DNA of 56,661 nt, filler included, from Streblomastix strix (Eukaryota), in NCBI GenBank assembly GCA_008636045.1. It is 3 parts of 3 records of this genome, joined end to end, with 100 filler letters (N's around TTAATTAATTAA, not from the genome) between each part and the next. Parts side by side here need not be neighbours in the genome. Positions count along the whole stretch, not along the records: positions 1 to 18,827 come from SNRW01000580.1; 2 more parts are not named here. One strand, given 5' to 3'. Position numbers and translations under genes: made by a program. Positions 1 to 43,369 of the stretch are shown piece after piece. How positions within the stretch are numbered: the stretch's first letter is position 1; each line of letters begins with the position of its first letter. The notes below the pieces were generated by a model. It worked only from the letters and a program-made list of their open reading frames with translations. It had not been told where the DNA came from and did no database searches.

Positions 1-2
1 TA

Positions 3-3000
3 AATGCAGATGCAAAATAATTATATGACAAAATTATTAGCTTCTAACAACGATCAGCACGAAATTTTGTATTTAAAGAAGGAATATTACTTAGAATGAT
101 GCGATAAGGTGGATGGGTACTATTAGATGGAGTAGAATCAGCTCCTCATGAAGTAGAACGGCTTATGTCATTATTAGAAGAAGAACCAACACTTGCTATC
201 TATGAAGGAGTAAGACCTTTAATATTTCATGGTCGTGGTGTAGTTCGAGATAATTCTGGAGAAAATGAAATTTCTTAATAATTTAAAGATGGCGAAGTAA
301 ATTTATCTGAAGAAAAAGTTGAAATTGCAGAAGGATTTCAAATCTTCATTACAAGTAATGATTTAAAAAAAACTGTCACCTGCGCTTAGATCAAGATGCT
401 TTTGCATATAGATGGAAACTGTTTAACAAGAAAGTCATGCTAAAGAGCTTGCTGAAAGTGTTCTTTTTTAATCAGATACTGGACGTCTTTATAGCGTCCC
501 AATTGCAAGAATGCTTGCTGGAGTGTTTTTTGAAGGAAAAACAAAGAGTAAAACCCAAAACCTTTTATTTAGCAAAGACACATTCTCACCTCATAGAATT
601 GTGAATGCTGCTCGTGGTATTGGATAAGATGAAATTACAGCGGAAAGCATTGCATCTGGTGTCGCAATGTCTTTTGTATAATGTTTCAAATCTGAAGAAG
701 ATCAACACATTATTTCAACAAATGCTGAAGGAATATTAGCAAAAATTGCTGATGAAAAGTTACCAAGTAATACAAATAAGTGGGAAGAATTTAATAAACA
801 TGCCGGACAACTCGAATATGTGATATTATTTGATTTCATTCAAAAGAAAGGAAAAGATTGGCCAACAGATGCAGAAGAAGAATTAAATTTACTATTCAAA
901 AAACATTATATGAAAAATGATAGAATGAAGAATATTCACAAATTTGACAAAGATATCACAATTCCAGAGCTAGATGAAATGATATAAAAGTTTGAACATA
1001 TTACATTAGAGTGGATAAAAGATATGAAATTTAGCGACATTAGAAAGACTGTATCAGTTTTGTCAGAAGTTAACTTCATAGTTACTTCATTTTGTGGAAT
1101 TGGAACAACAATAGCATCTCGATTCTACAGAATTCACCATCTTTTGGAATCTCTGAATCCTGCAAGTGAACTTTCTGGATTAAATGTGAGCTAAGGTGAG
1201 AAACTATATTAGAAAAGTATCAATAAAGATAGTTTTTAAGTTATTGGAATTGAAGGAAAGAACGCAGAAGATTGGGCACTTATTATTGCAAAAATTTAAT
1301 TTCTCTGTGATAAATTTTTCACACTCCCAGATGCATTCCCTGCTATGCATATCTATTCTTATATATTCAATATATATATGAAATGCTTCTTTGATTAAGA
1401 ATTAATAAAATCAATGAAAATCAAACAAACTTTGATAATTTTATCAGAAAATAAAATACTTCGTGAAATACTTCGATATATTAATTTAATTAGCGAAGAA
1501 GATGAATCAGCTGCAGTTGTTGGTCATCTCGCTAGATCAGATCATTAAATTGAAATGTATATCTTTTCAAAAACAATTCCTCTTCTTACATAAGATGATA
1601 AAACAATTCAGATTATTCTATAAATTGACAACAATCCTATCATTCGCATTGGTTAACAAGAATTAAGAACTTCAATTACAGAAATTTCTGAAAATATTTC
1701 AATATCTCAATTTGAAAATCTTCCTCTTCTTGATATTAACATATCATCATAATCAGTCAAAGAAGTTTAAGATGGATTATAAAGTATAAAAAATCTGAAA
1801 GCCGAACATAAATTATGGATTCTTTCAGATATATTCTCAAATATTTCAAGCAGTTTTTTGAGTTAGAATGAAATGTTATAATAATTAATTGAAGCTATTC
1901 GTTCATTTAGAAATGTGGCTATAGGAGTTGGTAATTAACCATTTGGACCATCATTAACCCCACTTGATTCTACTTTAAGTGAAAAAGCGTTTGAATGTAT
2001 TCGATTTATTTCAGAATTTAAATAGAAACAATCATCTGAAATTGCAGTCAATCTCCTATAACAATATAAAAGTGTTGATTCATCAATAAAATACTTTTCT
2101 TCATATGAATATTAAGCTATTTAAATTTCAAAAATATTCAAAGAAGTGGGAATTGATTTGTGGGATAAAGAAATCAAATTTTTATTAGAAGTTCGTTCAT
2201 AAATTAATGAAACAGATGAAATGGGTCGGATGAAAAAAGAATTGAAATAAATTATTCCACGGTTTAAAGTTCAATGTGATAATTTGATTTAATTAGGGCA
2301 AGGAACAAAATTCGAGAAAGAAACAGAAATTGCAGCATAATTTTATAGAAAACGTTGCGAGCCTCTGAAAGATGCTGACCCATCAAAAATTCAAAATAGT
2401 ATAGATTAACTTTCTGTTTTCAACTAGAAAATAGCACAACGAAAAGATATTGGAAACAATAATGGAAATATCCCAATTTTAATTAAAGATTATTATGAAG
2501 ATTTTAGATACGATGAAGCTGTGACAGCCCTTATAAACTTCTCACGCCGACAAGAAGCTATATCAAAGGCATCTGAGAATGCTTCATTTGAAAACATAGT
2601 CTTTATGCTAGCTCAATTCTGTATAATGTCAAATGTTGATAATATTGTTAATCCTTTCTATCATCTTCTTGAAAATGCAAAAGAAGGATCGAAATTGAAA
2701 AAGGAAGATATTGAAAAATTAAAATAGTTGAGTCGAGCTCATCTTCTTTGCCGTAATTTACAGAAAAATCAGAATAGTATAATCAAACTTCCTGATGTTC
2801 TCCAAGCACTTATTGATGGAGATGAAAGAATTGTGAACAAGCTTTAGCATACACCAAACTGTGTTGAATTCATTCAGTTCCCAACATTTATTCCTTCTGA
2901 TCTAATTGCTTGCATTCAAATTACTACACAGTCAGGAATATTCTATGGTCCTATTGGATTTAACTAAGATAATATCAAACAAGTAATTAATTATGAGCCT

Positions 3001-6000
3001 AAAGATAAAAAAGAAGCACTTTTAATTTGTGCAGAACTTCTTGTTGGAAAAGAATTTCAAAATCTTATTAAAGAATTAGATATTTCTTCATGGTAAATGA
3101 AAATTGGATAACTAGAAAGAAAAAAAGGATTTTAATTTATGTTGATGGTTTCAGAGGATATTGATAATCGAAACCTTGATATGATATATTTATTAGATCC
3201 AGATTCTGACTAAGATTAAATAAAAAATTCTTTACGTGATCATCCATGTGAAGGGATTATTCATGATATGTACTCATCAGAATATAAAATTGCATTATCC
3301 GTACAAAATGAATGGGAAAAGAATCGTAGATTATCTGTTCTTCATATTCTTCTATTTGCTCTTACAATGAAAGAAGAAATCTCAAAACAGGATTACCAAA
3401 TTAACAGTTAAAATTGGGAAGAAAGAATACGTTCTATGATCTTATAATTAGATAGGAGAAATACTCCTTATGGATATCGCATTGCAAATTTACTTGGGTG
3501 TGTTTTAATTGAAGATTTAGAAGCATAAATTGCTCGATCAATAATCAATAATGTTCTTCATCAATCTGTAAATTATCGTCGTATTTTTGAAAATTAAGGA
3601 TTAGATGTAACAATTCTTCTCTGTTTAAAAGAATATGTTCAACGATTACTTATAGAAGAACGTGTACCTCTTGAATAAACTCCACTTATTGATCTCCAAA
3701 CATCTTTGGGATATTTAATATTCAAATCATTTGAAAATGAAGCATAAAGAGAATAATAATCAATTGAATAAAATAATTATTCTAATTAAAAATTACTTTG
3801 TAATGCGTTGAAAGACTTGATTGAAGATATATCAAATTGGTTGATTCGTCATCCTGAATAAATCATTAGATATTACGACAACTAATCTAATCTAATATTT
3901 TTGAATTAAAATGAAAAATAAATTGCATAATGGATCCGAGATGCAGGATAAAAACTAATTGATAAAGCAGATTAAAGTTTTGAAGGAGCTATTGAAGTTG
4001 CCAGAATGATTCACTTAGCATATTTCAAAGAATTTAATTGTTATCGATTATTATGTTTATGTAACAATAACATGCTTGATGGGTATTTTGTTGGTAGAAG
4101 ATATGCATATAATAGTGTTTGGGAGAAAAGTAAATAACTCATTATTTAGCACAATTTAAAAGCTAATGGACCATTCACAAAAACTTTTAATGATTACAAA
4201 TAATTATTTCCAAATATTGAAGAATTATTTAATTAAAGAGGTTAATCTTTGGTCTTCAAAAATGAAATGTTATAAAGAGTAAGAATAAATACAAATTTTA
4301 TTTCTTTAACAACTGCAATTTAATAATTTTCTCCTCTTTTTTCTTCAATTAATGTGGATAAATCAAGAATCATTATTCCAAATGAGATTATTGCAGCAAA
4401 TGAAATAAATTAAAATCCAGATGAAAAAGAATTTAATGCACTTATTTAAGGAGATAATGACTCATTATAATTTTTATCATCTTCAATTCTTGCAGATTTT
4501 GGAGTTCATATTGATAGATCATCCACATCAAACAGCGGAATCGTAACGATTGAAAATCTTTCAAGTTCTAATATATCTGTTGATCTTATAACTTAAGAAG
4601 AATAGAAACTAAAAGCAAAATTGGTATCCAATGCTATTAAAGCAGGATAAAGGATAGAAATACAATTCCATATCACTGGACCATCTTCTGAAGAACCAAT
4701 TATGGCATGGGCATCATATGAGATCATTGCAAAGAGTACAAGAGAAATTAAATAACCAGCTCGGTGTTAAGTACGAGCATGGGTTAGACGAGTACCTCTT
4801 TGTTGTATAATTGAATCATCCTCATCATTAGTTCTTGGAAATAATTCTTAATGTACATTAGCTCCAAAAACATTCACTGAAATTGTAAGTTTAACAAATC
4901 ATATCCCTACAACTTAACTATCATCAAAAGCTATAGGGTGGTCTCTTTCATCAGAATCTGGAAACATGGCTGAAGCACCTAATATTGAAATAAATAAAGA
5001 AAAACAAGAATTAACTATGAAATTTGAAACTGAAACCACTGGATTGTGCACAGGTAAAATGATTGTTGGACTTGGCCATGCTGAATTATATTAATTATAA
5101 CTGAGTGTACCTGTGAGCCGAATCACATCAATTGGTGTTTTTCATCCTGCAAATCCAGATAGCACTTTTATTTCTTTGACATAATGCAATAGTACACATA
5201 TTGTAGTATATAACAAAGGAAATTTAAAGAAGAATTTGACCTTATAGTCAAGTAATTCATCTGATACATTTGAACCATAATCTCTTAATATTGATCCTCT
5301 TTCACAGGCATTAGTGAAAGTTAACTTTATTAGAGGTGATCGAAGAACAATTTCTGTTGGAAAAGCCAAACTTTAAATTATACTTATCAAGAATAAAATA
5401 ACATTCAACGATAAAGATGATTATACTCGAATTTCAATGGAATAAGATGGATATTTCCCATGTATATTGATTAATAATAAAGATGGAACATCAAACTTCA
5501 ATTACACAAAAAAAGACTAATATTTAAAAAGAAATTGCCCATCTTTTATTTTACAAAACCAAACATATATTCCAGATTATACACCTCCATTTGAACAAAA
5601 TCCTATTCATTTAAATCGATGGGTATTGGATCCAGATTAAGGACTACGTTTTGTTAATGCTGAAGATTAAATTTCTTCAGATACAATTGTACTTTGGGCA
5701 GAAAAAGGATAATAACAAGAATATATTCGCACTATTGATTTAGGATTAGATAAACATGTGAAAGATGCTATGAAAAAGGTTTCGGAGGCATCAAACTTGA
5801 CAAACTAATCAACTTCATAAATTCCAAAATTAATTGTTGATGCAACTAATTTCTTTTTTAAGATATTCAATCGTATTGATTAAATTAATTATTAATCTCT
5901 TATTAATTGTGCAAATAAAGGAAAGGCTGAAAAGAATGCAGATGCATTATTCTGTAAAATTATACTTGCGCTTGATAAAGAAGTAAAAAGAAATGCAAAA

Positions 6001-9000
6001 GTCTCAATTCTAGATATCATAACTTAAATCGCACGAATTGCTACAAAGAGAAAAGATTGGACTTCATCCATTCCTTCTATTCCCACAACATGGAAAGATT
6101 AAGGATAATAATTAGAATTGAAAAAACTAACTTTACATCTTATTTGGGGATCAATAATTCTTCTTCACACACTTTGCAATCCAAGAAATCTTACTGATGA
6201 AGAAATTAGTAATTTTAAAGAAATGTTGATTCAAGGTCCGTAAAATGAAGAAATTAATCCAAAACAAAGATAAATTGAGAATGCATCAAATATTTAATCT
6301 GTATTTGGACAAGAAGTTTAACGAATTGGTGTAATATATGGACGATTTATTAAAGCTGAAATTATTGATGAAATACTAAAAAAGGTAGAATAAATGAATA
6401 TACCAATATTTCCTCCTATTTCAAAAGATAAGGAGAATGATTAACCAATATCAATAGCAGGATTACTTAAATAAGTTGAATAACAATTTGAATTAACTAT
6501 TAATTAATTTTAAACATCTAAAAATCCTTCTGATTTAAATCGACTCCTTATTATTATTCCATCTCTTACCAAATAAGCAATTATTGCAATCTAACACATT
6601 GGAAATTAAAATATTTCTAAACTTGTTGCAAATCTTGGAACATTAACTATAATTATATAAGAACTTCAAAGAAGTATAGAAAACATGCTACTTCTTGAAG
6701 AGAATATAAAAAAAGCAGCTGAAGGATGCTATTAAACTTGGGCTAATTTATTAAAAGTTAAAGTTCAACCTCCTCAACAACTTAAAATATCATAAACAAA
6801 ATTAAATGAATTATTTAATTCTGATTAATATACACAAAATGTTGAAATAGTTCCAATATAAGAATGTACACTTAGGCGTGGAGTGTGGTAAACTTAAGCA
6901 GAATAAATAAGTTAAAATTAAGGAAGAAGAAATTAATTAAGATTTGGAGATATGAATATGAGAGCAATGGTGAATAAAGGAATGAGTAATGATGATGAGG
7001 ATTCTAAATAAGATTCAAATGATGGTATATATACTTCTCCTGTTTTATTAAGTTCTCGATCAACTCATTAATCTGCCTAATAATCAGAACCAATGAAAAT
7101 AATTCCAATTAAAAAAAATAATTCAGAATTACCAATTGATAAAATATTGGTAGCTATGAGAGATGCTTACGTTGAAAAACCACCACCTGAAGAATTAAAT
7201 GAAGGAGAAGAGTATCAACAAATTGCTGTCAATCCAAATGAAATTTAATCTCGTCTTATTTAAGCTAATATTGTTGAAATGCTTGAAGGGAAGAAAGTTG
7301 AAGATTTGCTAATAATTGAGTATAATGCAGTTAAAAGAGCACCACGTGGAAAAGATAACTAAATAAAATTGTCTGAAGGAAGAAATATTGCATTTATTGA
7401 TGGTACTTTAGATCGTCATGATTTTGATAGTATTGAAGGAAGAAGTGAGATTATTGAACTTCATGCTTTATCTCTTTAAATTTAATCACTGTTATATGCA
7501 GAGATATCAAGAATGATAATACCATTTGATTAAAACAAGACTATTCCTTTTACAATAAAAGATACTGAAGTTTCTTTGATCGTTGATGTTAGCGCATCGA
7601 TGACAAAGCTTGCAAAAGCGAAATAAATGGGATCTATGGTTTTAATTGCTGGAATCTCGGATGTTCTTGCAAGTTTTGGAATTCCATTGTAATTCTTTGC
7701 ATTTGCAGACAGAGAAGCTATATGGAAACTTTCTGACTCGACTAGACCTAATCATCTTTAAGATATGATAAGAGTTATTGATGCCTTGAGAACAGGAGGA
7801 CGTCCTGGATCATTCCCGTTAGATGCAGCTATTACAGGTTATTAAGAATGGGACAAAAGGTTAAAAAGTATTGAAGGGGCAATTAAAGGCGCTACAAATC
7901 ACTTAACTATTATTATTTCCGACTTCATTAGTGCTCAAGTCCTGGATAGAGATCGAGATTGGTCAAAGGAAGATATTGGTTAATGCATTCTTATATCTTT
8001 AAACACAGAATTTAATATGAATCATCTTGAAGATAAGAAAATTCCTAAGGAAGTCTACGATAATGGACTCATTCCAAACTTTGTAATTGGTGGAAATATT
8101 ACTTCATTTCGTATTAATCCCATGGAACTATGCATGGGATTTTCTCCCCCTGAAAATAGCACTCTACTTTCTATTATGAAAAAGATTTCTCTTTTACTCA
8201 AAACAAATTCAAAAGCACCTACAAAAGGAACATCAACTAATCTTAAGACTTGCTCGCCAATACATGATCAAGCAATGTTTTGGACAAATCTTGGCCATAC
8301 ACATGAAATTGCCACCAAAACAGGCAACGATTTCTTTGTTTAAATGAAATCTTTGTAGAACTTCGCTCTTATGACAATTAATACTTCTCCATATAGTGCA
8401 GTAGTTCGAGTGCCAGAAAATATTGAAACTGACAGGGGATGGTTAGAAAGATAAAGCGCTACGATTGCTCAAACTCCATTTGGTGGATTTTCTCATGATG
8501 TGGCAACTATGGCACTTACACACTCACTTGCACCGAATCGAGCAGCTGGAAAGGAACCATCGCCATCTTCTGGATAATTATGGATACCTGGTCTTCGAAG
8601 ATTTATTGCTTCTGGATTCACTTATCCGAATCTGTTTTTGAAGAAGAGTCGTCAAAATCAAAAGGCATATTCAATTACATTCGTGATAGACAATACTCTT
8701 AGAATCTTTTCTGCAGCAAACATTTCTCATACAGTCAGTACAATTGCTGCATTGATTGGATCAATTGCACTTGTTCCAGAAGGAGATGATATTGTTGTTG
8801 ATGTTATTATAGCATGTCAATAATAAATCCAACTCCTTGTATATAACTTCCCAGCAAAATAACTTTCGGATGGAAGTTTAATATCGGACATCTTTCGTAC
8901 AATGCATAAACATGCTGGAGAAGAAAGTGGAATAGGATCTGGATTAAATGCAGCTCTGCAAATTGCATCCAGGCGAAGTGGGGTTGGATTTGGTAGACGT

Positions 9001-10473
9001 GTAATTGCCTTAACAGATAGTATTGTTACAAACATAACGGAGATAAATTGTTTAAGATAATCTCTTCTTGATTGCGATGCTAGTGGAATTGATGTAGTTG
9101 GTGTTGGATTGGGAATTGCTCCTTTACAACTTCCATAATTGTTCCCAACAGCATTCTATGCATAATATCCTACTGAACTTGGAAATGCGATGGCAGCTGC
9201 ATTGAGTGTTTCAAGATTAGGATCAAATGGAGAAATAACAGCTCAATAGTTGTTTTCTGAAGTTGATGTATAGCGTGAGTAGTAATTAGAAATACTTTTA
9301 TGTGGTGATCCATCGTAATGTCCTCAACTATCGAAAAGTATCAGAGAACGAGAACTCTCTTAAGATTTTATGGAAGCGATTGGAAACACAGATCTCCTTT
9401 TCATGAAAGGATCAGCAATTGGACTAACTCAGAATCCAGAAGAAAAACCATATTATGAAAATTCATTTCAAGGATTCCGAATGCTTATAGTTTGTTTATA
9501 TCTTGGATAATATGAAGCAGATCCAAGTAAATTTAAACAAAAATCATTTGACGATTAGTGTGGAAAAGTTCTTCACAAGAAAGGATTTGAATATACATTT
9601 GTGAGTTCATATGGTGAAGGACTAGCTGAATTGCAGTTAGTGGAGAATGGTCGTTGCCCTTACAGTTAACTTTGGCTATTCTCTACAAATGGTAAAGGAG
9701 TGCTTCCTTAAGAAGCAAAAGACAAAGATACCAACAAAATTGTTCCATTTATGCAAGCAGTTGCAGATTTCTGGCTAGGAGGTGGAGGATTGTTCTTATT
9801 CTGCGATAATACTCCTTTTACTTTTGAAGCAAATTATCTTCTAGAAAAACATCTCAACTTTTCTCATGCTGGAAGAAATGGTCCATCTGCTGTATAATTA
9901 CATGGTAACTACTATGGAACAAAATAAATTCACGAAGCTCCAAGTGATATGGCAGCATGTGGTTCATTCTATAGATAATCCAGGCTGGAAGCACCTGGTA
10001 TTGCAAAAACTCGAATTTCATTACGCCCAGGGTTAGTTCATTTCTCAGAAGGAATTACCATATCATCTGCTTGCAATAGTTAGAGTTAACCATTGACTGA
10101 TCCTGCGTAACTCTGGCCTTTCACTCCGTTTGGGTGGACATCAGAAAACGTGTCTCCACCTCGACCATTCATTCTCTATTTTGATCCAAAAATTCCTCCT
10201 GAATCTTCTGCTGCTTATGACAGTGAAGCTTGTACAAAAGCAAAACCATCTCCAGGTCCAATTGTACTTCATGGTGGATTCACATCAGCATTCTCAGAAT
10301 TTGATTAGGATGAAAAAGGAATGGGAAGATTAGTTGTTTCCATTGCATGTTGGCTTACTCGAATCGAGGAGAGGATGTATGCTGCAAAGCGCAGTGGAAC
10401 ACCATTACTCTACACTACACCAGCCCTGAAAGGAACATATACTGTTCAAGGAGTTTTTTCTGGATGGAAATGA
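3..10473 (+). CDS. Giant midasin/MoxR-like AAA+ protein with Ig-like region, tandem vWA domains and C-terminal class I GATase-like domain (5'-partial, >3400 aa, intron-free)
   Basis: With TAA/TAG=Gln, frame 3 (3-371) reads FVFKEGILLRMMRQGGWVLLDGVESAPHEVERLMSLLEE...FQIFITSND. After one extra A in the A8 run at 365-372, frame 1 continues LSPALRSRC and was open wherever I checked up to TGA 10471-10473. Standard-code fragments 2521, 8017 and 8638 all lie in this frame. Confidence 0.9.
60..420 (+). other. Midasin-type AAA+ module (C-terminal half): Walker B region, sensor-1, Arg finger
   Basis: FVFKEGILLRMMRQGGWVLLDG, FQIFITSN and LSPALRSR match the midasin/MoxR consensus F.W.DG.L..AM..G.W.LLDE / F..FAT.N / LS.A.R.RF. 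Confidence 0.85.
4490..5390 (+). other. Beta-rich region, probably 2-3 PapD/ASH-like Ig domains
   Basis: ADFGVHIDRSSTSNSGIVTIENLSSSNISVDL...IKAGQRIEIQFHI and IVVYNKGNLKKNLTL...FEPQSLNIDPLSQALVKVNF follow the DFG..vti.N / P....I.P.....v.v.F pattern of ASH/PapD-like folds. Confidence 0.5.
7561..8000 (+). other. vWA domain 1 with intact MIDAS DxSxS motif
   Basis: EVSLIVDVSASM...LQFFAFAD...FPLDAAI...LTIIISDF. Confidence 0.85.
8521..9210 (+). other. vWA domain 2, midasin C-terminal type with degenerate MIDAS
   Basis: APNRAAGKEPSPSSGQLWIPGLRRFIASGFTYPNLFLKKSRQNQKAYSITFVIDNT parallels the midasin P......G.RLN...I..IAS.F...KIW.RR.....Y.I.IAID.S.S segment. Further on: VIALTD and IDVVGVGLG. Confidence 0.75.
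9440..10360 (+). other. Class I glutamine amidotransferase-like (flavodoxin-fold) domain
   Basis: FQGFRMLIVCLY...LHKKGFEY...YSQLWLFS...AVADFWLGGGGLFLFCDNTPF...EGITIS...GPIVLHGGFTSAF...GRLVVSIACWL is a typical GATase-like/ThuA-like pattern. Confidence 0.55.
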
Positions 10474-10799
10474 TAACTATTATTTAATATTTATTTCACT
10501 TTCAAACTCGAGATAATGTGATTATTTTTCAAATGTATATCTATCTATATTCAACTATTAGTATCAATAAATATTTTAGAGTTCTTTATTAAGATTATAA
10601 TATATTATATTGAAATTATTTTCTAATATTCAAAAATCTAATTTTTCGAATTAATTTCTAAAGCATCTCTATCTTTTTCATGTTTAATTTTCAAAAATTA
10701 ATATTGTTTTGAAGAATCTGTAGTGTATTAAAACTTAAATAATTTTAAGATAATTTCTTTATAAAATCTATAGACTGGGTAATAATATCTAATAAGAAT

Positions 10800-11830
10800 A
10801 ATACAATAATCAAATTTTGAAATTGTCAAATCATCTACTATCTGAGATTATTATTGTACATCTCCATCGGAGACTGTTTCTGCACCCATTAATTTTGATA
10901 TTTCCAAATTAGCAGTTGAAACTAGATGCTCCATTGAGCTACCTATCCCTATAGGTCGGCCATTTGAAAAATAAGAAAACAAATATCGATGCATACAAAC
11001 GCTGAACATGTTCTCGAATTGTTCGGACTTCTTTGTGAAAGAACAACTGCATTTACCTTCAAATTTACCAGTATATGATGACATGTACAAGCACAGGAGC
11101 GATTTTCGCTTATTTGCAAGTGAATGAGATTACAGCGTCAAAAGCTGAAACAAGGAGAGCCCTTTGAAAGTTATCTATATAGAAGATATAATTTATTATC
11201 ATGATATTCAAGGAATTATAGAAACGATAAAACGCGTCTTCGATGGATTTTTTCGGTGGAACTGCTTGCTTAAGCGCAGATGCAGGATTAGAAGTCAGGG
11301 GGTATTCATGCATCGAAGGTGACAAAACATGTATAGGAACAGCCGCTCTAAATCCAGATCGTGTAATAAGCTGCTGAATTGAATGCAACATGCCAAATTT
11401 ATAATATTAAATGTCACTATTACCCCTTTTGACCTTGCAAATAATTCAATGTTTGTTAGAATGAAATACTAAAGAGATATTTGTTGACTTAATAACCACG
11501 AATCATATTCCATTGTATTTCGCGAAATGATCAGTCTATATCCAAATTTAATTGAAGAGTTCACTAAAAGAGCAAAATAATTTGATTCAAATTATTATAT
11601 AATCATTTCTCTCGCAATTAAGCATTTGCATACTCTAAGATTCATACAAGAATTAAGAAACCTTGCCTAGATATACTCTCAAATAGGAAAATATTCAGCA
11701 ATAGCTCTAAGAAAAATACAATATGTTCCATTATATTTTACGTTCTTCTCAACATAAGTCATTTAATCATTTTAAACAGACGTAATAATTACAAGATATT
11801 AAATATAATTAGCAATTTAAAGTTTTATTG
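10800..11830 (+). pseudogene. Decayed coding sequence of unknown identity
   Basis: Higher GC than its flanks, with long open stretches (SPSETVSAPINFDISKLAVETRCSIELPIPIGRPF; MDFFGGTACLSADAGLEVRGYSCIEGDKTCIG) broken by TGA and frameshifts. Confidence 0.3.
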
Positions 11831-13287
11831 TTTATATTCGAATATTTCAATTTTAAAATTTTCATTTGCGAGGCATATTTTTTGCAATTTTTCAAACTAC
11901 AAATTTTAACATATAAACATATCACCATCATGACTTGAATAAAGAGCCGTAATAAATTAAGTAGAACTCTGCTCAAACTCGAATACAATATAAAAAATTA
12001 TAATAATTAAATTTTATAATGCTGTCTCATCAGATTCGGAGGACTAATTAGCTTTCCAATTTATATTCTAGAGCTCATTAATTGAATATGTAGGATAATT
12101 ATAGAACAAATAATTTACAATCATTCTAACGTTATTAATATAATAATCGTAAAGAAAAGTTTCTAATTCTAAAACTAAAAACAAAAAACTACTAAATTCA
12201 TCAAGTTGTGGATTGGTTAAAAGAATTCTTATGGATATTCTTTCAAAATAAAACAAAAAAAATTCCTAGATAACTTAGTATAGTATCTTTACTCCCATTG
12301 GTCTAATATAACTCTATTTTAACTTTATCTATTTGAAATTTAACTCATATTGATATTTATAGATATAAAGGAGTTTCAAATTAAGATATTAAAGTTAAAG
12401 TGCAAATGGAGGGTATCGTTGAAGATATTGTGAATGTGTTTCATTTGACTTTATTTAAATTGTAATATACAAGGCTCGAATATTTAATAACGAATGTATG
12501 GGAAACTCCTTATGGTGATGAAGAAATATTTATATTTGTGCGTATAGTAAAGGAATGGAATTGAGAGGAAATTATAATTATCGCCATTATCACATTCAAG
12601 ATAATGATCATGATCGTAAATGATACAATAAAAATTTCATGAAAATTGGCCAAAAAGAAGAAGAAAATGATAAATTCAAGAAATTGATCAAGAAATTGAA
12701 GATCTGATAATTAAGAGTGCCAATAGGTTCCACATAGTGCAAAAAAATAATAAATTTGAAAATTTAAAATTTGGTAATCCTTACAAAGTAGAAAATGATC
12801 AGGTTAACTATAAACTATAGTAATTCAAACTCTTATATTTTCTATCCGAATTTAAAAAGATGATGGTTTCAGTATATGAAACAATATTTATCTTATTTAT
12901 TTTTAAGAATCAACCGCTGAATCATGGATAAGTATAATTTCAATTAATGATGAACTTTAAAATATAATTACTTAAAATTTTTGGATTGTAATATATTTAT
13001 TTGCATAATATGAGAATGATCAAGAAGTAAACTAATAAATCATAACATATATAAAGACGGATGACTGATTTGAAAATGCGCAATAGTCACTGAACCGATT
13101 TTATTCTCTGTATGTTAGAAACACATATATGTAATAAGAATAATAATTCATTGAAGCAGATGTTGCTAGTTTCGATTTTCTTATTTTTTGGAAATTCAGA
13201 TATAGGTAAGATTATTGAACGAATTTTCAATATTTAGAGAAGAAATGTGTTTTCCTCATGTTTAACGAAAATTTTTTTATTTATATT

Positions 13288-13701
13288 TGTACATACATAC
13301 GAAGTTGCCTACAAAATGATACAATTACATTCAGCAATTCAGCCAGCAGCACCAAATTTTGATTTTACCGTATTTGCGCGTTGTAGTTTCGCAATTTTTA
13401 TATGCATCACAATTTTAAGTGAATTTGCACATATATACGTAATTGCCTAAAAAATAATATATTTATACTCTATTATTTGCACAACTGCACCAAATTATAA
13501 TTTTACTGCATATGCACATTGTAGCTTCGCTTATTATTTATATATTACATTTTTAATGATATATGTACATAAATACGTAATTATCCACAAAATAATAAGA
13601 TTACACTCAATAATTTGGCCATATTCACCAAATTTTTATTTAACCACATTCGCAGATTGTGGTTTCGCGTGATGTTTATATGTCACATTTTTTATTAAAC
13701 T
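13288..13701. repeat. Diverged 138-bp tandem repeat, 3 copies
   Basis: Units start TGYACATAHATACG at 13288, 13426 and 13564 and share the CACCAAATT and TTGTRGYTTCGC blocks. Confidence 0.85.
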
Positions 13702-13759
13702 CATATATTATTTTATTTTAATTTTAAGAGTATGAATTAGTAACACAAAATCAGTTAAA

Positions 13760-15570
13760 AAGATTTTGAAGATTAGGATAATTGTTCAGAAAAATCAAGA
13801 AGAAGGAACTCAAAATCTATAGTTAATTTCAGATAAAAGAGATGAATGATCGAGGAGGATTTTGATGACCAGAATAAGTCTATAACTCCAATTTATCATG
13901 TTATTGAAACTTCCACTAATGATAAAGATAGTTACACCAATTCTTTATTATTACTTCCAAATTACAATGGACAAAAGGGCAGTTAAAATTTGAATGATAT
14001 TAGACCTTAAACTCATTTAAGAATAACGCTTATTAGGATGAAAATGATAATATTTACTTATTACGACACTAAATTGCAACAATTAAAATAAAAAAATGTA
14101 AATTTGAATGATGCTAGACCTAAATAACCATAAAATATTAATGGTTAAGATGGAGAAGGTGGAAATAATAACTTATGACGACCATCAAATTTCAATAAAT
14201 AAAACATAAATGAAAATTTAATTGATATCTGATATTAAACTGAATAAAATATTGCAAACTTAAAAAGTATTTAATATCGATCTAAGTATAATTTACGAAC
14301 AAATGCGAGAAAGTTAAAGAACAAAGAAATAGAATATTTGTAACTTTAATTAAAACAAAAAAGGAACAGTAGCATGTTGCATAATTGCGGTCAATCCAAC
14401 ATAAAATGCAGCGCATGCGGGGCTTTACATTTTAGTTCCTAAATAATTAGAGAAAATTCAACATTTAATGATTATTGTAATCATGAAAAAGACAAAAGTA
14501 CTCCGGTCGATGAATTAAATGGAATAATGAAATATATATTCAATAAAGTTCATCCCAAGTTTTTGAATTTTATGGAGTATATCAGAAACTACAATTCAGC
14601 GCTTGCGAGTGCGGCACTTCGTGGAGATATTTAAGTGATTCCTGGGTGAAGTCCTTATATATTACGATTTCAAGGAATTCCATTGGTGCAAGTAGGTCCA
14701 TTATATCTTGAGAAAAATAATCCATCTTATGCATAATTGAATATAGTTGACGCCAGAGAAACATACACAAGAAGAAATACCAACAAAGCAAATGAATAAT
14801 GTGATAAGGAACTAATGTATTTATTGAGCCAATAGATAGAAGATAATAATCCAAATGCAGTGAGTTTTTGATCAATGAGAAATAAATTAGTTAAAAAGAA
14901 TGAAGCGGCACAAAATGAAGGAAGGGCAATTTAAGATCTTTATTTATATTTCATGAAAAAGGGACTGGGCTTACTGAGAATGTGCATTCATTACCTTCAG
15001 CGGATGAAATTGCAGCTGTTTGCGCCTCTATATATGAAGGAGAGTTTTAAGATGTATCATACGTTTCATTTCAAAAGCATGGAGGGTTAAACTATTTAAA
15101 TGTAACAGATCCAACAAGAGATGGCATGGTTTTTCTTGTGTCGTTCCCTGAAGCAGTTAGGAGTTGGAGTTGCAACGATTAAAAGAAAATCTTAGATAAT
15201 TGACATGCTAATCAATAGTAAGAAGAAGAAAATTTAGATCTTAATGAAATCAATGAAGAAAATGAAGATTTTCCAAATTAGCCAATCGATACAAATTTGA
15301 AGAAAAATATTTCATAAAGCGAATATTACTGATATAGAATTGCTAGAAGAGCAAACTTCTCATCACTACATCTCTCCAATAAGCTTTTCTAAGAAAATTT
15401 AATATATGCTGCTTTATCTGTAGTTTCTTCCAAACTAAACTTGGTAAATAATCATCAATAAACTCTAAGAGTTGAAAAGTATAAAGGGCTAAGAAACTAC
15501 ATCAACCGATTAATTATTTAAGAAGGAGTACTGTCAGGGGAAAGATTCGTACTTCCTAGTTGATTTAAGG
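13760..15570 (+). mobile_element. Decayed Helitron Rep/helicase ORF, N-terminal part only
   Basis: Helitron motifs in the expected order: Zn-finger KCSACGALHF (~14404), FMEYIRNYNSALAS, PY..RFQG...GPLYLEKNNPSYAQLNIVD, LPSADEIAAV, DPTRDGMVFLVSFP, EYY*YRIARR...KLFQ, HQQTLRVEKYKGL, GERFVLPS*F. Multiple TGA stops and frameshifts. Truncated before the Rep catalytic and PIF1 helicase domains; 5' boundary approximate. Confidence 0.9.
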
Positions 15571-15574
15571 AGAA

Positions 15575-15892
15575 TGTGATAAATTTTGCTTAACATTAAT
15601 TAATAATTTTACCAGTAATGATGGGTAATAAAAATGTCTTTACTGCTGTTGTAATTTAATCAGTACTTTATGTTACAAATTTAGTTAAATCAACTTTGAT
15701 TTATTTGAAAAATTGGCTTAAATAATTAAAGTATTTTATTATCTCTGAATCAATAATTTAAAATAAATTATTCCTATCGTTTATATATTTTTATTACTCT
15801 TCCTATTATTATATTATTTTATTTGCATATTCTTACTAAATAGATTTTTCTTCTTCATCAATCATTTCTAAATCACTTAAGTTTTGATACAT
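15575..15892 (-). pseudogene. Truncated fiber-like ORF
   Basis: MYQNLSDLEMIDEEEK...DLTKFVTQSTDQITTAVKTF. The FVT.STDQ.IT..KTF motif recurs in the contig-2 fiber protein. Cut at the Helitron junction. Confidence 0.5.
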
Positions 15893-15917
15893 TTTTATTA
15901 CAAAAATAATAGGTTTT

Positions 15918-16481
15918 TCACTCATAATTACCATTCCTTAGTTTATTAATTGATATTTACATACATTTTTTATTAATATCATAAATATTAACAGTATCAT
16001 ATGGTAAATAGGAGTATTAATGAACCTCTAACTTTCTAAATTTAAGACTATTATGATAATAAACATTAAAATCTTAATTAAAACTGTATCCTTCAAAATC
16101 ATGTCCTTCATATATATTTAAACGTTGACTCCCTTTTGGTAAATCATCAAAATATTCAAATTTTTATCCACATCCAGTTTTATTTTTTCTATTTGTTTAA
16201 CATGTTAACCATCGTAAATTTTCCAATCAATTATCACTTTTTACTCTATTAATATTATCAATTTCTGGAAGATTATTAAGATTTGGTATAAATTACATAG
16301 CTAATATGCGATGTAAATAATAATACTTACTGTTTAAAGCAATTCCTTAATATCCTGTTGAGCTAATATTTATTATAAGAATATTTCCATTAGAAATTTT
16401 CCATATTGTATATAGTTAATCAGCAAGTATCTCATAATCGTCTTGAGCAATTAAGGTTTCTCAATTGTTTTACTCTGCCAT
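15918..16481 (-). pseudogene. HNH homing-type endonuclease (NUMOD4/HNH_3-like), disrupted
   Basis: MAEQNN*ETLIAQDDYEI...YLHRILAMQFIPNLNNLPEIDNINRVKSDN*LENLRWLT. This is the HR..A..FIPN...LP.VDH.N....DN...NL.W signature, with two TGA and a frameshift. Confidence 0.85.
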
Positions 16482-16507
16482 TTATTAAACAAGTAAAAAT
16501 AAATTAA

Positions 16508-17141
16508 TCAAAAACCGTTATCTGTAATATCTAACTCTAGTGCATCATTTAATCGGATTAAATCGCAATTAACTCGAAACAGTTTCTAAATAGAACTGAA
16601 CATGACATTATCTAATATTTTAACTGATTCATTTTTGATCAAAATATCTTGTATGAGGTTATATTATTGCTTCTTTTAATACAATCTCTACTTCTTATTC
16701 ATCATTCTAGGTAATCAAATTCCAAAATTTAATGACGTTATTTGATGAGAATATGAAATCATCACCTCGTTAACGATATATAATCGTACGCTATACAACG
16801 TCAATGACGAATTTTAAAACTATCATATTTGGATGGGAAAGATATTATAATTTAGGTTATTCTTCTGCTATTTATTTTATTGTTTCTTCTGGTTCAATCT
16901 GAGCAGTTGTTCTATCCACTTTCTAATATTTATTAACTTTATATTTCTTATAGGATATGGTTGTTTATGATTCATTTACAACATCCAATTATTCTTTTGA
17001 TTTAGCATTTATGCCAGAACTTTCAGTTTTAATCGTTTAATCGATCGTTGGCATTGATTTAATCCTGTTAATTGCATCATCGATCAATTGCAATCTTATT
17101 TTTTCTTCATCTGTTAATTCTTTACGTTTAATTTTTGATAA
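16508..17141 (-). pseudogene. Hypothetical virus-like ORF, frameshifted
   Basis: SKIKRKELTDEEKIRLQLIDDAINRIKSMP...LNDALELDITDNGF*. Start codon lost; lies directly upstream of the HNH gene. Confidence 0.45.
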
Positions 17142-18827
17142 TTATTTTTATAAAATTTTTGATAAATTAATTATTTTATCACAATTATACAATTACTGTT
17201 CAAAAAAATAACTTATTGATTGAGATTGTTAAATTGCAAAATTCGATACTATGCATATTCGTGTATATAAATTTCTAAAGAATTTTCATCTATGGTTGAT
17301 GTTCTTTTGGAATATGATAGAATATGAATGTAAAAATAGTAATGAATAGAAAAAATTAATGAAATCATGGTTCATCAGTACCTTCCAGATCAGTCATTAG
17401 AAAAATTTATACCTTAAATGCTATTTTTTTCATATAATTATAAAATTTAATAGAACAGATATGAGCTCAAGTTAGATATATTTTACTTATATATACATAT
17501 ATAATATACATACATAATATTAATATTATATTATCTCATCTGAATCTTTAGAAAAATTTTCTTCATTTGATATTTTCATCATGCTGTATAATATTATTAT
17601 TATAATAATTTCAATCGTTATTAAATCAATAATTTTTTTCAATTGATTTATAATTATTTTATAATAATTTATTCATTGAAATTGGAAGAGTATCAATTTA
17701 CTGTTACTTAAGAATTTTGATACATAATTCCAAAACAAGATAATAATTTAATATTAAATATAATTAAATATTTAATAATTAAATAATTTAAATTAAATTA
17801 TTATAATATAAAGTTATATGATATCAAAAATCATATATACGTCCGAAATAAATAAGCTTATCAAAATTAAATAAATAAATTAAGCTAGATTTATAATGGT
17901 TTAATTGATGATCAGTTTTTAACATTAATAAACTTCATCATTTATTTTTCATTATATAATTTTATTATGATCTAATTTCCATCGAAAGTTTTAACATAGC
18001 GGTAGTCAAACATATCACCTATCACAACTCACAATTCGTTCAATTAACGAACTTAATCGAAAATATGATAAGTTTCGATTTTAGAACTATATATATTACT
18101 TTTATCGTATTTATTAATGCATTATTTGATAGAAGTATTTTTATATTTATTTATCTATTTATATTAAAAGTTTTTATTTAGATATTTTGTGATAGAATTA
18201 TAATATTAATTATTTTGGTCAACCATTTTATATTTCATAACGTAGCAACTATATTATTAGTTTAATCATCAGTTAGAATTTTAGGTTAACGTGATTTGGA
18301 TCATTTCAGATAACAATCTTGGATTAAATCTTTCAGTAATGGACTTTGACGAATAGGAGCAATTGATTTTTTTATTCAATTAATTTTTGAAAAAAAATCA
18401 TATGAATTGATATCTTTTTTTATTTAAATCGTCTTCATAATAAATTTTATTTTTCACTTTTATATTTATCAGCTATGCATCGACTAAGAAAATATTCACT
18501 AAACAACAGAAAAATGAATATAACCAATATATTGCACTAAAAAATTACTCAATTGTTACAATATAATCTATATCATAATAAAAATAAAAGTTCAATTTAA
18601 GACATATTATTTCAAGCAGAATTTTTTTTAGCAAAATCAAATTTGTTCGTATGGGTTAATATAACTGTGGATGAACTAACAATTGATTTATTTATATTTT
18701 CAATGATATTAATGGAATAATCAATAAGATTGTGATTTTTGAGCACAATTTCTTCTTTCTGCGATTAATTTTTTTTAAAAATAAAAAATTTCTTTTAAAG
18801 TTGCATATTTTTTAATAAATAGATTTT

Positions 18828-18927
18828 NNNNNNNNNNNNNNNNNNNNNNNNNNNNNNNNNNNNNNNNNNNNTTAATTAATTAANNNNNNNNNNNNNNNNN
18901 NNNNNNNNNNNNNNNNNNNNNNNNNNN
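18828..18927. other. Artificial contig linker (44 N + TTAATTAATTAA + 44 N)
   Basis: Exactly 100 bp with an all-frame stop linker; identical to 37749-37848. Confidence 0.98.
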
Positions 18928-18972
18928 GTAGTATAATATAGCAATGATGGAACAAAAATAAACATACTAAAC

Positions 18973-19308
18973 TCATGAAATTTCATCAATTGAAATAACT
19001 TTCTTATCTATTAATACACTAATTAATTTATCTAATTAATTATTCAAAGAGTCAGAATGCCAAGCATTATCATTTTCAATTATGCTATTATTTTTATCAC
19101 GACTTTTTCTCAAAGAGATTGCGCCTTAGAGTTTAGTAATACAAAACCCTTTGACTTTAAATGTCTTATTTAATTTTTATGTAGTCATTTAGTCCATTGA
19201 TTCCTTATTCAATACAAGATACTATTTGAATTCATCAACTGTATCAAATGTTACAAACTCAGGCAAATACTTCTCTAAAATCTTCAATTATTGTAGATTG
19301 TTGTTCAT
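18973..19308 (-). pseudogene. Small Maverick-associated hypothetical protein
   Basis: MNNNLQQLKILEKYLPEFVTFDTVDEFKQYLVLNKESMDQMTTQKLNKTFKVKGFCITKLQGAISLRK followed by a frameshift. Resembles small ORFs of parabasalid Mavericks (recollection, not searched). Confidence 0.55.
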
Positions 19309-19382
19309 TTTATTAACTTCCTTCTATTTACTGTCAAATATTACTAGACTCGTTTTATTTGAAACAAAATCATAATGTTTAA

Positions 19383-19754
19383 TCAAAATTCAAAATAGAT
19401 TTCAAGTACAAATGATATGTTATTTTAATCAACAAATTCACTAACAATATTCTTAAACCAAAATTATGTACTTCTATCATGATTTAGTTGATTAAAGTGT
19501 TTATCTGTACATTTTTCATCACATCTACTTATATACTAATCATTATCTTAATCTTCTTATACAAATGATGCATGTAAATAAAGATCTTAATCAATTAATT
19601 GCTTATTTGTTCTACATTATTCAAAAATATTCTCTCTATTATTTTTCGATGTGACAAATTCTACAGGCAGTTGAAACTGGTTAATCCCTTCATCTGTTTG
19701 TACGGTTGAATTTTAAGTTAATATCATCCGTTTTCTGTTAAGTTATGAGACCAT
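19383..19754 (-). CDS. Putative minor capsid (penton-like) protein, 123 aa
   Basis: Intact ORF: MVSQLNRKRMILTQ...FQLPVEFVTSKNNR...LYLHASFVQ...TQFWFKNIVSEFVDQNNISFVLEIYFEF*. All-beta pattern ending in a hydrophobic strand, as in polinton/virophage minor capsid proteins; near the MCP gene. Confidence 0.5.
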
Positions 19755-20109
19755 TTTTATATCCAAAAATAAACAACAAAGTTGTCTGGTATAAATGCTA
19801 AATTCAATGATTGAACTATTCTTCTTTTTCAAGATATGCATCAGCTATGCGTATTAAACCTCTCACATAATCTAGCACTGTATATAAATTTTATGCGTAT
19901 TTTTTTTTAATTTTGCATTAAAATCTTAAAGTTCTTTAGTCTTTTATCAATGTGTATTCAGTAGTTATGTTTATAGTTGTGTATGTAACTCATATGTTTA
20001 TTGTTCCATTTTAGATTAGATAAAAATAATTACTTTATTTAATAAAGCAGGCAATAAAATTGCTTATTAATCAAAGAGTATAATTAACAGAGTTCAGAAT
20101 CTACGATTA

Positions 20110-20397
20110 TCACAAATCATTCTCAACTTCATATTATAGATATCTTTATTCTTCAAATTCATATGCTACTCTAGCATTATGTAACTTACATTAATCATTA
20201 CTAAGTTATTTCATTTATTTAATATACTTATATTTATCACTATCAATCTTAATTTTATCTTTGTAATCAGTGATTTGGTCATCTGTTAAGAATAATTAGC
20301 AACTATTTATCCAAAACTTTTCATAATTAACATATGGGATATTACTTGTCAATGTTATCTCATTTTCATTATTTGTATATATTATCTTATAATCCAT
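20110..20397 (-). CDS. Hypothetical viral protein (~95 aa)
   Basis: MDYKIIYTNNENEITLTSNIPYVNYEKFW...YNEVENDL*, preceded by a TAAAATG start context. Confidence 0.5.
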
Positions 20398-20440
20398 TTT
20401 ATTAGATAAATAAATAAAAAATAATTATTAAATTAATTTT

Positions 20441-22150
20441 TCATCCTTCAATCTAACTTATCACTTTATCAAATGTTTTATTAACATCATAAACGCATGA
20501 GCCTCCATTAGCAGGTCCAAACAGCCAGAATGTATCATGTATAGTGCATAGAATTGGAGTAGGTGGTCTTTTACCCATTAGATCAACATTATTATAACAA
20601 TCTATATCACCTTAATAAATTTGTGCTCCTCATAATTCAACTGATACATTTTAATTCTGAGTGTATAATCCTTCAAATGTTAGTGCACCATTACTATTAC
20701 GTTCACATTATAGAGTGATCATGAAAGAAGTAAGATCAGTGTGAGGATTCAATCTCATTGAAGCTGTATTTCTTGGTGTTGTCAAAGCATCTTCGAATTC
20801 ATCAGTTGCTTCGAATTACAGATCTTGATTACTTGCATTCAATTACATTTAGAAGAATTATTAATCTAGTGTATTCATTGGCATACCCTGGAAATTTCTT
20901 CAACATGTAGTAACTTACATATTATGATAGCATGGATTTTCATAACAAGTTATTGCTCTAGCATCTTTAGGAAAAAGCAAGCATAAGTCAGTTACATGAG
21001 AAAATGGAATATTTTATGATGTTCTAATTCCTGTTTAGTAGTACTTGTTAGAAATGACCATGTTTCAACTCTCTGTGAAGGTACAACAAATGGTCTATTA
21101 GCATAGAATTCACGCACTCTTTATAAACATTCATCTGTTGTCTTATATATTCTTATATTTGCTGTCAATTTAGTTACAACGTAATTTTTTATTGATAATG
21201 TCACTGGACTAATACTACACATCAAATTCTTCAATCCACTATCTATTATTTGTTCAATACTTATTTTTGTAATAAGATCTGCAATACGTCCCATTTGAGT
21301 AAATTACTTAGTATATTGATAATCCAAACTCCAATTTCTGAAGAAAAGATCAATATTCAATTTGTCCGGTCCGCTTGCCATGAGATCAGTCTTATTCATA
21401 GTGTAGTATTTAACCGTACTGATAATTGGATTCATTTAGGCTAATACGAATGCGTTGGTGTTAATTTTAAATTTAATTTTCAAATCATCGAATAGTGAAT
21501 TAGGACAGTCAGTAAACCCACTAAATACAAGGATATCATCTAACGGAATTGATAATCAAAATCTTATAGGTATAGTATACGGTACAGAAACTTAATCTTT
21601 AATATCATCTTCAATCTCTCTTATTGCTACATAAGTTCCACAAGCTGATATGTCATTTTTGCGTATATTTTCATACAGTGAATGAATGTGTTTTCTATTA
21701 TTTTTCTCATTTCGCGGTTTAATAGTGTTATAGATAAATTATTCGGTAGTTGAATCATTCTACAACGTTCAATCAATAGTACTACCCCTATGATAAATAG
21801 TGTATTCTCTTATAACTTAACTAGCTGATTTTAGTCCAATGAACAATACTGTTCCATCTTTATAAGCCTCTTCAAATCCTTCAAATTTGTAGTCAAACTG
21901 AACATTAGCTGTGAGTACTATTGAAAGAAATGATTTCTAAATTAATGTTACATCGTGATCAGTGTCAGATAAACTAATTAAAATTTCCTTATCGAATAAT
22001 ACAAACATTTAGCTCTCCGGTTTTATTACTTTGATTGAATCTTGGTGTTCTCCATCATTTCTAAATGCAACAACAGAATTACTTTTTAATGTTGCTTCGA
22101 TAGTCCCGAGTTATTGCAAATGCATTGACTTATTAAGAAAACAGTTCAAT
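20441..22150 (-). pseudogene. Putative major capsid protein (Maverick/Polinton type, ~560 aa), disrupted
   Basis: LFIGLKSASQVIREYTIYHRG...EQFIYNTIKPRNEK..RKHIHSLYE...ACGTY...SIPLDDILVFSGF..PNSLF.DLKIKF...FVVPSQRVE...LLFPKD...ERNSNGALTFEGL...PILCTIHDTFWLF. Beta-rich, capsid-sized and similar to Trichomonas Maverick MCP-family sequences as I recall them. Four in-frame TGA and at least one frameshift. Confidence 0.7.
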
Positions 22151-22214
22151 TTTATATTTGAAGCAAAAATAAACTAATCATATGCAGTAAGTTAAACTTT
22201 GAATTGAAATATTT

Positions 22215-22622
22215 TCAAAAATCTTCTTTACCAATTTCTTGAATAATATATTGTGATCCATTTATAGCTTAATTACTTGGAATCCCAAGATTAGTTCCCA
22301 TAACCCTATTTGTATTTCTTGAGACATTCGGATTAAGTCTTATGTATCTATTATTTCCAATTGATTATCTTACTCTAGGTTCATCAATGAAATTCCCTAC
22401 ATCTTCTCTAAAATTTGTCATGTTCGTCACTTTGTCTTAACTATTATTTGCATATATTAAATCTAAACCACTTTACACAACTTATAAACCTCTACTTACT
22501 ATAGGTGGAGCGAGGGTATCGATATATGGTTTAAGGGGTTTATATATATGTGAGCCAACCCAGCTAGCTCCTTATCCAAATTTTTGTGCTATCTATTTGA
22601 ATTTTTGAAAGATTCCAGCCAT
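22215..22622 (-). CDS. Small protein with N-terminal cationic amphipathic helix (candidate membrane-lytic virion protein), 135 aa
   Basis: Intact ORF beginning MAGIFQKFKQIAQKFGQGASWVGSHIYKPLKPYID, immediately upstream of the MCP gene. Confidence 0.65.
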
Positions 22623-22679
22623 TTCATTTACGAAAAATAAACATCATTAGAGGCTGAATCGTATTAACTAACAAATTAT

Positions 22680-24296: not shown

Positions 24297-24362
24297 TTTA
24301 TAGTCCAAAAATAATACGAAGTCTTATATCCTTTCAGGATTAATAGTAGTCGATCTACAAAA

Positions 24363-43295: not shown

Positions 43296-43369
<74 letters not shown>

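Follow-up and report, generated by a model that had tools for sequence, protein, structure and literature searches.

Results

The locus and its reading frame

The stretch of DNA analysed here (the window, 56,661 nucleotides of Streblomastix strix, a protist of the termite gut) consists of three unrelated contigs (1-18827, 18928-37748 and 37849-56661) joined by artificial spacers of the form N44-TTAATTAATTAA-N44 at 18828-18927 and 37749-37848, and arguments from gene neighbourhood are therefore void across the spacers. The first contig carries EZS28_004141, as the window protein is 100% identical to the NCBI record over 2,010 amino acids. This gene belongs to a family of giant midasin-like proteins whose architecture comprises six AAA modules, a linker, PapD/ASH-like immunoglobulin-like (Ig) domains, two von Willebrand factor A domains (vWA1 and vWA2), a GIFT-like domain and a third vWA domain (vWA3). 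Under genetic code 6, an open frame of 3,457 codons extends over 100-10473, whereas the longest frame in shuffles of the same 10.5 kb has a mean of 366 and a maximum of 632 amino acids. The coding sequence is split between frame 3 (3-371) and frame 1 (373-10470) due to one extra A in a run of eight, while the paralogues read continuously at this position with no frame break. The preliminary description of this DNA had proposed a single exon of more than 10 kb. A single frame over 3-10473 can no longer be maintained, but no intron is needed over 367-10470, since the paralogue P0009 aligns there in one block at 51% identity. The contrast that was drawn with intron-bearing host genes does not hold either, as those genes (e.g. 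an mTOR-like gene) sit on other contigs. Two elements of the NCBI gene model were rejected: the skipping of approximately 372-429, which removes a conserved arginine finger, and a splice past the stop codon into 11222-11374, which has no counterpart in the paralogues. Terminal repeats, a hallmark of mobile elements, were not found around the gene.

Due to the contig edge on the side of position 3, the gene begins in the middle of AAA module 6 and only part of this module lies in the window. The preceding modules can be observed in protein P0245 (2,700 amino acids, from an 11,462-bp contig), which contains AAA modules 1-5 plus the start of module 6 and whose last 98 residues are identical to window 3-296. 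If P0245 represents the same locus rather than a near-identical copy, the sequences imply a whole protein of about 6,090 amino acids. The first ~500 residues of P0245 were judged ARM-like by eye; this start belongs to a gene model that may have been mis-joined.

A predicted six-module AAA ring

As the preliminary description had recognized, the segment 3-399 is of the midasin type (PF07728, E value 3e-4) and its top PDB matches are midasins. The full ring, assembled from P0245 and window 3-399, contains six tandem dynein-related AAA modules, and six modules are likewise present in 14 other family proteins. PDB matches of the ring are led by midasins (E 1e-51), followed by NorQ, CbbQ and CobS (E 1e-11 to 8e-3). 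Among the 15 family proteins, the Walker-B DE pair occurs in module 1 of 14, module 3 of 13 and module 5 of seven (three more have EE), as well as in module 2 of a single protein, but in none for modules 4 and 6. The gene studied here has DE in modules 1, 3 and 5. By comparison, all eight midasins examined carry DE in each of modules 2-5 and none does so in module 1 or 6. Arginine fingers are found in modules 1, 2, 4 and 6 of this gene and are missing from modules 3 and 5; across the family, they were counted in module 4 of at least 8/15 proteins and module 6 of at least 6/15, both being undercounts due to clipped segments.

Five rotifer-type proteins also carry Walker-B DE in modules 1, 3 and 5 only. 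In a tree of individual modules (FastTree, 168 modules, 155 columns, with no metamonad MDN1 among the rows), family modules 1, 2, 4, 5 and 6 were each sister to the same-numbered rotifer-type module (support 0.86-1.0) and apart from MDN1, while a single module 3 of the family was placed with MDN1 module 1 instead. The rotifer-type proteins (P0261, P0262, P0273, P0287, P0297, P0299 and P0312) constitute a sister family of giant six-AAA proteins from bdelloid rotifers and metagenomes, in which live and dead modules alternate perfectly around the ring of the five scored members, while one member is annotated as a midasin in UniRef. A GIFT-like domain was found in 0/7 of those examined, several of which are partial records with unsure C-termini. 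Related mentions occur in two papers: one rotifer gene with partial midasin similarity (PMC7943196) and midasin homology within a planarian retroelement (PMC6431247).

RNF213 (mysterin) is likewise a giant protein that carries six AAA modules in a single chain, of which few are live. The analogy to RNF213 raised in the preliminary description found no support, as neither half of the protein matched an RNF213 chain in sequence searches at E 0.01 and E 1, and no E3 module was seen.

Linker, Ig region and vWA domains

No Pfam match was obtained for the linker downstream of the ring (400-4443). Of the Ig-like domains that had been proposed earlier, one is weakly detected at 5173-5352, where it is PapD/ASH-like (Cep192_D3 at E 2.9e-5 and Cep192_D6 at E 0.06, both below the curated cut-off); such a match was obtained in 1/9 family members. 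An aspartate/glutamate (D/E)-rich tail before the vWA domains was not found in this gene by the composition of 200-residue windows, in which D+E peaks at 0.175, compared to 0.42-0.485 in six midasins. A search of NCBIfam gave no useful match and a viral fold library gave one generic match.

Two vWA domains had been predicted, one with an intact motif and one degenerate, and both were confirmed. The DxSxS motif of vWA1 is intact mainly in the S. strix clade and mostly degenerate elsewhere. vWA2 aligns with the midasin C-terminal profile over 200 columns, the finger included (HHalign probability 96.9, E 1.3e-10), but it is internal and carries DNTLR in place of DxSxS, and the gene has no single C-terminal intact MIDAS. 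Judged from these alignments, vWA2 is the MIDAS domain of midasin with its ring-docking finger kept and its metal site lost. The family profile yielded only weak vWA matches among PDB sequences (midasin MIDAS, E 0.36).

Among 42 GIFT-bearing proteins of at least 2,400 amino acids (near-duplicates included; HMMER searches with --max), 36 contain vWA3 of either the DxSxS or the DxTGSM type. The other six comprise two entries for this gene, three records that break off within the GIFT domain and a single record that is partial. vWA3 of the relatives has a complete MIDAS (DxSxS...T...D), with a TDG-type motif in 18/18 aligned. No vWA3 remnant was found in the six frames of 1-18827, and a contig from run X1 spans 9030-10873, across the stop codon, without gaps. 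Accordingly, the architecture ending in a GATase-like domain that had been described at the outset applies to this copy, but not to its relatives, which continue into an intact vWA3.

Collectively, these data bear upon the possibility that the gene is a divergent metamonad MDN1/Rea1 acting in 60S ribosome assembly, which we regard as very improbable. Such an identity would account for midasin being the best PDB match of the ring, for the MIDAS-like vWA2 and for the one member named Midasin in UniRef, and a canonical S. strix MDN1 was not seen among the matches listed. However, the Walker-B pattern of modules 1, 3 and 5, the missing D/E tail and the grouping of the modules with the rotifer-type family rather than MDN1 all argue that this is not MDN1. 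Furthermore, there are at least six copies in one genome, the MIDAS site of vWA2 is dead, the midasin lid Pfams PF17865, PF17867 and PF21108 are present in midasins yet absent from the list for P0245, and the family also occurs in fungi, where a separate MDN1 would be expected on general grounds. The earlier suggestion of a non-ribosomal midasin paralogue is thus supported.

The GIFT-like domain

The ~300-residue domain at the end of the protein had been considered GATase-like, and an AlphaFold2 model built from a 63-row alignment (predicted local distance difference test score of 91) indeed adopts a class-I-GATase-like fold. Its best matches are IFT52N (Z 15.6, root-mean-square deviation 2.7 Å over 200 residues), OST48 (15.3), site-1 protease (S1P, 14.8) and a ThuA-like protein (14.4), whereas true GATases score about 12 or less; a second comparison agrees on the superfamily. 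Based upon the model, the “GATase” domain is closest to the GIFT domains of IFT52 and OST48. Across the GIFT (IFT52 N-terminus, OST48, site-1 protease) and ThuA/DUF4350-like proteins, the fold is shared over 200-216 residues at deviations of 2.7-3.6 Å, but identity is just 9-16% and the domain has its own DNxP, EGxT and (D/H)xGFT motifs and no Pfam match. Specifically, protein P0003 had no match above the cut-off to a GIFT, ThuA or DUF4350 Pfam profile; among the 16 members of the set A2, ThuA was matched in two (E 0.03) and IFT52_GIFT in one (E 0.18).

The preliminary description had interpreted this domain as an enzymatic tail. An active Cys-His amidase or deamidase fed by the ring, in the manner of an RNF213-like effector, now seems improbable. 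In its favor, C135 (LFLFCDN) follows the strand that bears the class I GATase nucleophile. Among the homologues (253 matches, of which 188 cover both sites and 156 are non-redundant), Cys and His occur together in 25/156, all in the clade holding this gene, and D136, N137, E217, T220 and T295 are near invariant (E217 and P139 in 153 each, T220 in 147, T295 in 144 and N137 in 139). However, Cys occupies the elbow position in only 31/156, and in 10/35 members with the His this position is taken by S, P, A, F, T or V. As the co-occurrence of Cys and His reflects one clade and not independent events, it is weak evidence for an enzyme. A GxCxG elbow is also missing, with no Gly at -2 or +2 (context LFCDN), as is an HPE motif. 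The scarcity of Cys together with GIFT domains being the best fold matches makes an amidase effector unlikely, and the lack of an RNF213 match further detracts from it.

These matches could also suggest a ciliary or cytoskeletal remodeller sharing modules with flagellar assembly proteins, as the GIFT fold has its nearest match in IFT52 and the Ig domain in Cep192, and the known carriers bear flagella or cilia. This function is also unlikely, given that other ciliated lineages have no member among the best 120 of 1,042 matches and that GIFT and ASH folds are common in bacterial proteins as well.

Outside of the giant proteins, the GIFT-like domain stands alone in amoebozoans and a dinoflagellate, and its relatives are found fused to EF-hand, WWE or LIM domains. 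Bacteroidota and Myxococcota encode unnamed GIFT-like proteins of ~305 amino acids (79 loci, L001-L079), which have signal-peptide-like starts and often occur as tandem pairs or triples. Conserved neighbourhood at these loci was limited to the tandem copies and lineage synteny; open reading frame calling missed the match in some GC-rich loci. When a bacterial homologue was used as the query in the Atlas, the nearest clusters were unnamed, followed by IFT52_GIFT, ThuA and DUF4350 clusters, and an unnamed rotifer cluster was retrieved as well.

Distribution of the family

Records of S. strix contain at least five further copies. The search for paralogues with variable C-termini that had been advised was productive, as some of these copies are modelled with kinase or PADR1 zinc-ribbon ends. 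Named members of the family come from Chilomastix, Kipferlia, Aduncisulcus, Dysnectes, Tritrichomonas, Histomonas, Piromyces and Neocallimastix, thereby covering all three metamonad groups plus the Neocallimastigomycota. One or more GGGGATT or CCCCAAT units lie close to an end (within 200 nt) in 14 of 25 metagenome loci, and tandem units are seen in seven. This repeat is given as the rumen-ciliate telomere in bioRxiv 2022.01.05.474053, and the metagenome members likely originate from rumen ciliates. Several of the metagenome loci have single frames of more than 3,000 codons, a situation that prokaryotic gene callers favor. In one metagenome member (P0379), residues 1-220 appear by eye to be tandem ubiquitin-like repeats, and other members start with kinases or pseudokinases.

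A tree of the GIFT-like domain (IQ-TREE, 248 columns) was built with 34 rows selected out of 62. In this tree, the fungal sequences and two unnamed ones group with Chilomastix and S. strix (100/100) within a clade whose named members are otherwise metamonads (100/97). Holding the 14 named metamonad rows together was rejected by the approximately unbiased test (p 5e-60), the group having been defined after a first tree had been seen. The nesting of fungal copies among metamonad ones suggests lateral transfer between gut eukaryotes. With respect to the mobile or horizontally acquired origin that had been proposed for the gene, lateral movement of the family is supported for gut fungi, whereas the window gene itself looks native to metamonads rather than acquired.

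This distribution could also be reconciled with a housekeeping role, in which the protein would remodel metalloenzymes of anaerobic metabolism for their maturation or repair, in the manner of bacterial NorQ-NorD or CobS-CobT. The named carriers of the full architecture are all anaerobes or microaerophiles, and NorQ, CbbQ and CobS are the nearest to the ring among its small PDB relatives. Still, we consider this function improbable, because housekeeping genes do not usually show several divergent copies in a genome, ends that vary, a hypervariable patch and a copy in decay, and the sister ring family is encoded by bdelloid rotifers, which are aerobes.

State of the window copy

Contigs of run X1 were compared with the window, for which 37 differences within the gene were analysed (40 are listed and 8 more exist). 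Beyond base 400, 20/23 changed codons are non-synonymous, as would occur without selection (expected at 78-80% of sites, P 0.32), while 5/6 of those in the AAA6 segment are synonymous. One 841-nt contig covering the patch 3779-4252 contains 21 differences, compared with 8 in 6,271 nt of five others, and 15/18 of the changed codons in the patch are non-synonymous. In the GIFT-like domain tree, this copy has a branch length of 0.38, versus 0.06-0.13 for four paralogues. The missing vWA3, the long branch and the neutral-looking variation make it possible that the gene is a pseudogene, for which we consider the chances about equal either way. The data fit decay and diversifying selection alike.

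Slightly less favored is an intact and functional copy, in which the frameshift would stem from an error in the assembly or at the level of the cell, while the loss of vWA3 would reflect a genuine short variant employing vWA1 as its grip. Consistent with this, 3,366 codons lack a stop, vWA1 carries DVSAS, the AAA6 changes are mostly synonymous and one X1 contig (depth 9.9) is one base shorter at the A8 run. Conversely, that frame-restoring contig differs at other sites and may be a paralogue, while another X1 contig (342-819) agrees with the window across the run without gaps, albeit with fewer than 31 bases to its left. The non-synonymous changes past base 400 and the long branch also speak against an intact copy, and the open frame itself is less telling than it seems, since code 6 has TGA as its only stop and dead frames stay open longer. 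Approximately 300 bp past the premature stop, contig depth at 10753-11136 is ~415, versus ~9 over the gene, which suggests a high-copy repeat; the segment has no Pfam match.

Table 1. Features of the giant ATPase gene in the window
Feature	Coordinates	Strand	Remarks
AAA module 6, 3' part	3..371	+	Walker B WVLLDGVE at 114-137, without catalytic Glu; cut by contig edge; frame 3
A8 run with one extra base	365..372	+	shifts the frame past Walker B, ahead of the module 6 arginine finger
Arginine finger of AAA module 6, LSPALRSRC	373..399	+	conserved in paralogues
AAA6 lid and long linker, presumed helical	400..4443	+	33-63% identity to S. strix paralogues per 150-residue block
Hypervariable linker patch	3779..4252	+	cluster of differences in one run X1 contig; also one of the regions with the lowest conservation among paralogues
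Beta-rich region with PapD/ASH-like Ig domain(s)	4444..5760	+	best match at 5173-5352
Second presumed helical or low-conservation segment	5761..7299	+	position of the D/E-rich tail of midasin
vWA1	7540..8160	+	DVSAS at 7585-7599; IISDF at 7909-7926; vWA_Ro60, E 0.03
vWA2, midasin MIDAS homologue (by sequence)	8488..9231	+	N-terminal finger at 8488-8667 kept; DxSxS replaced by DNTLR
GIFT/ThuA-like domain, class-I-GATase-like fold (model)	9445..10392	+	unnamed family with DNxP, EGxT and (D/H)xGFT motifs
TGA stop	10471..10473	+	at the junction where relatives run on into intact vWA3

Other features of the window

Further along the first contig, 13900-15560 (+) contains a broken reading frame, the motifs of which suggest a decayed Helitron Rep-helicase; no tool returned a match. 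On the second contig, a presumed Polinton- or virus-like block at 20875-30842 encodes a primase-helicase of the DUF5906/VapE type (E 1e-17) and a 991-residue repetitive fibre-like protein, and includes a Fic-like gene (E 0.003) in the opposite orientation. A divergent membrane protein at 35461-37748 (-) has no Pfam match and appears to resemble the C-terminal part of a P-type ATPase. The third contig includes a protein-kinase fragment at 40901-42181 (+; E 3e-9) and the mTOR-like gene at 46410-56487 (+), which contains HEAT repeats, is heavily enlarged by Gln/Ser tracts and lies in two overlapping frames, as an intron near 51,000 would explain.

Discussion

The current study describes a family of giant ATPases with several features of midasin/Rea1/MDN1, namely a single chain bearing six dynein-related AAA modules, a long linker, a MIDAS-type vWA domain with a pore-docking finger and a module 6 without the Walker-B Glu. 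The key features otherwise differ: modules 1, 3 and 5 are live in the family as opposed to 2-5 in midasin, the D/E tail is missing, the midasin-type vWA lacks its metal site, Ig domains, another two vWA domains and a domain of the GIFT-like type have been added, and the family is multi-copy and patchily distributed. With the MoxR-vWA chaperones (NorQ-NorD, CbbQ-CbbO and CobS-CobT), it has in common the AAA clade and a vWA with an N-terminal finger, although it is encoded as a single 6,000-residue chain rather than as a hexamer plus a partner. As the finger-bearing vWA is common to both, the same docking logic is likely. The rotifer-type proteins, whose similarity to midasin is weak, share with the family the alternation of live and dead modules, and five of the family modules form sister groups with their rotifer-type counterparts. 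Only dynein and midasin are described in PMC3495828 as derived from a six-AAA ancestor, and the two are usually regarded as its sole outcomes. No description of this ATPase family was found among the papers listed in our literature search; supplements to genome papers could list such genes.

Based upon these likenesses, several inferences can be made regarding function. A ring made up of the six AAA modules is predicted, in which ATP would be hydrolysed at the 1/2, 3/4 and 5/6 interfaces, and vWA2 would dock its finger in the ring pore, both by analogy with Mdn1 and NorQ-NorD. Entry of a vWA finger into the ring pore is described for NorQ-NorD and midasin in PMC13036017, and PMC8837202 describes the use of the Mdn1 MIDAS to extract ubiquitin-like (UBL) factors. 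By the same analogy, vWA3 would bind the target through Mg2+, with vWA1 perhaps substituting in this copy. The GIFT-like domain between vWA2 and vWA3 could be a non-catalytic spacer or a ligand-binding unit, and the Ig domains may provide a scaffold. Overall, a grip-and-pull remodeller is the probable mechanism class, judging from these related machines. The fuller proposition, that the window gene is a truncated and possibly decaying copy of a multi-copy midasin-like family whose ring likely grips and pulls a non-ribosomal protein with ATP, is one that we consider about evenly balanced.

As for a biological role, conflict or defence directed at symbionts, viruses or mobile elements stands out as the likeliest single possibility, although we propose it tentatively and would not expect it to hold in the majority of outcomes. 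Copy number, variable kinase, ARM and zinc-ribbon ends, the hypervariable patch and lateral spread among gut eukaryotes are the basis for this suggestion.

Several observations weigh against the overall interpretation. Within the ring, module 5 retains DE in just 7/15 proteins and the Walker A of module 1 (GPTSASKS) is atypical, while the module phylogeny is a FastTree tree whose rows include no metamonad MDN1. A catalytic role is conceivable for the near-invariant polar residues of the GIFT-like domain. The 79 loci of the bacterial stand-alone homologues revealed no conserved neighbours of the MoxR, vWA or defence type. The kinase tails of P0006 and P0007, like the ARM start of P0245, come from gene models that are perhaps mis-joined. 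Lastly, the nesting of fungal copies could reflect ancient paralogy and loss, and it is based upon one domain of 248 columns.

The most far-reaching possibility, which we view as doubtful, is that the family constitutes a second, undescribed lineage of machines with six AAA modules in a single chain, in addition to midasin and dynein. It would serve anaerobic eukaryotes in intracellular defence by means of a three-site ring, in which one vWA docks, another grips and the GIFT-like unit located between the two senses, and its ~18-kb gene would have been passed laterally between metamonads, gut fungi and rumen ciliates. The window copy is a poor experimental subject, but cultured trichomonads carry intact members, and the bacterial ~305-residue GIFT-like proteins offer a small and tractable model for that domain. 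The occurrence of the family in metamonads, Neocallimastigomycota and likely rumen ciliates makes it a candidate for the transfer of a very large gene from eukaryote to eukaryote. The family would also be a natural test of separating vWA docking from substrate gripping. Finally, as a third lineage, which is multi-copy and combines an alternating live/dead ring with a tail of three vWA domains and a GIFT-like domain, it may provide a new handle on the origin of six-AAA rings.

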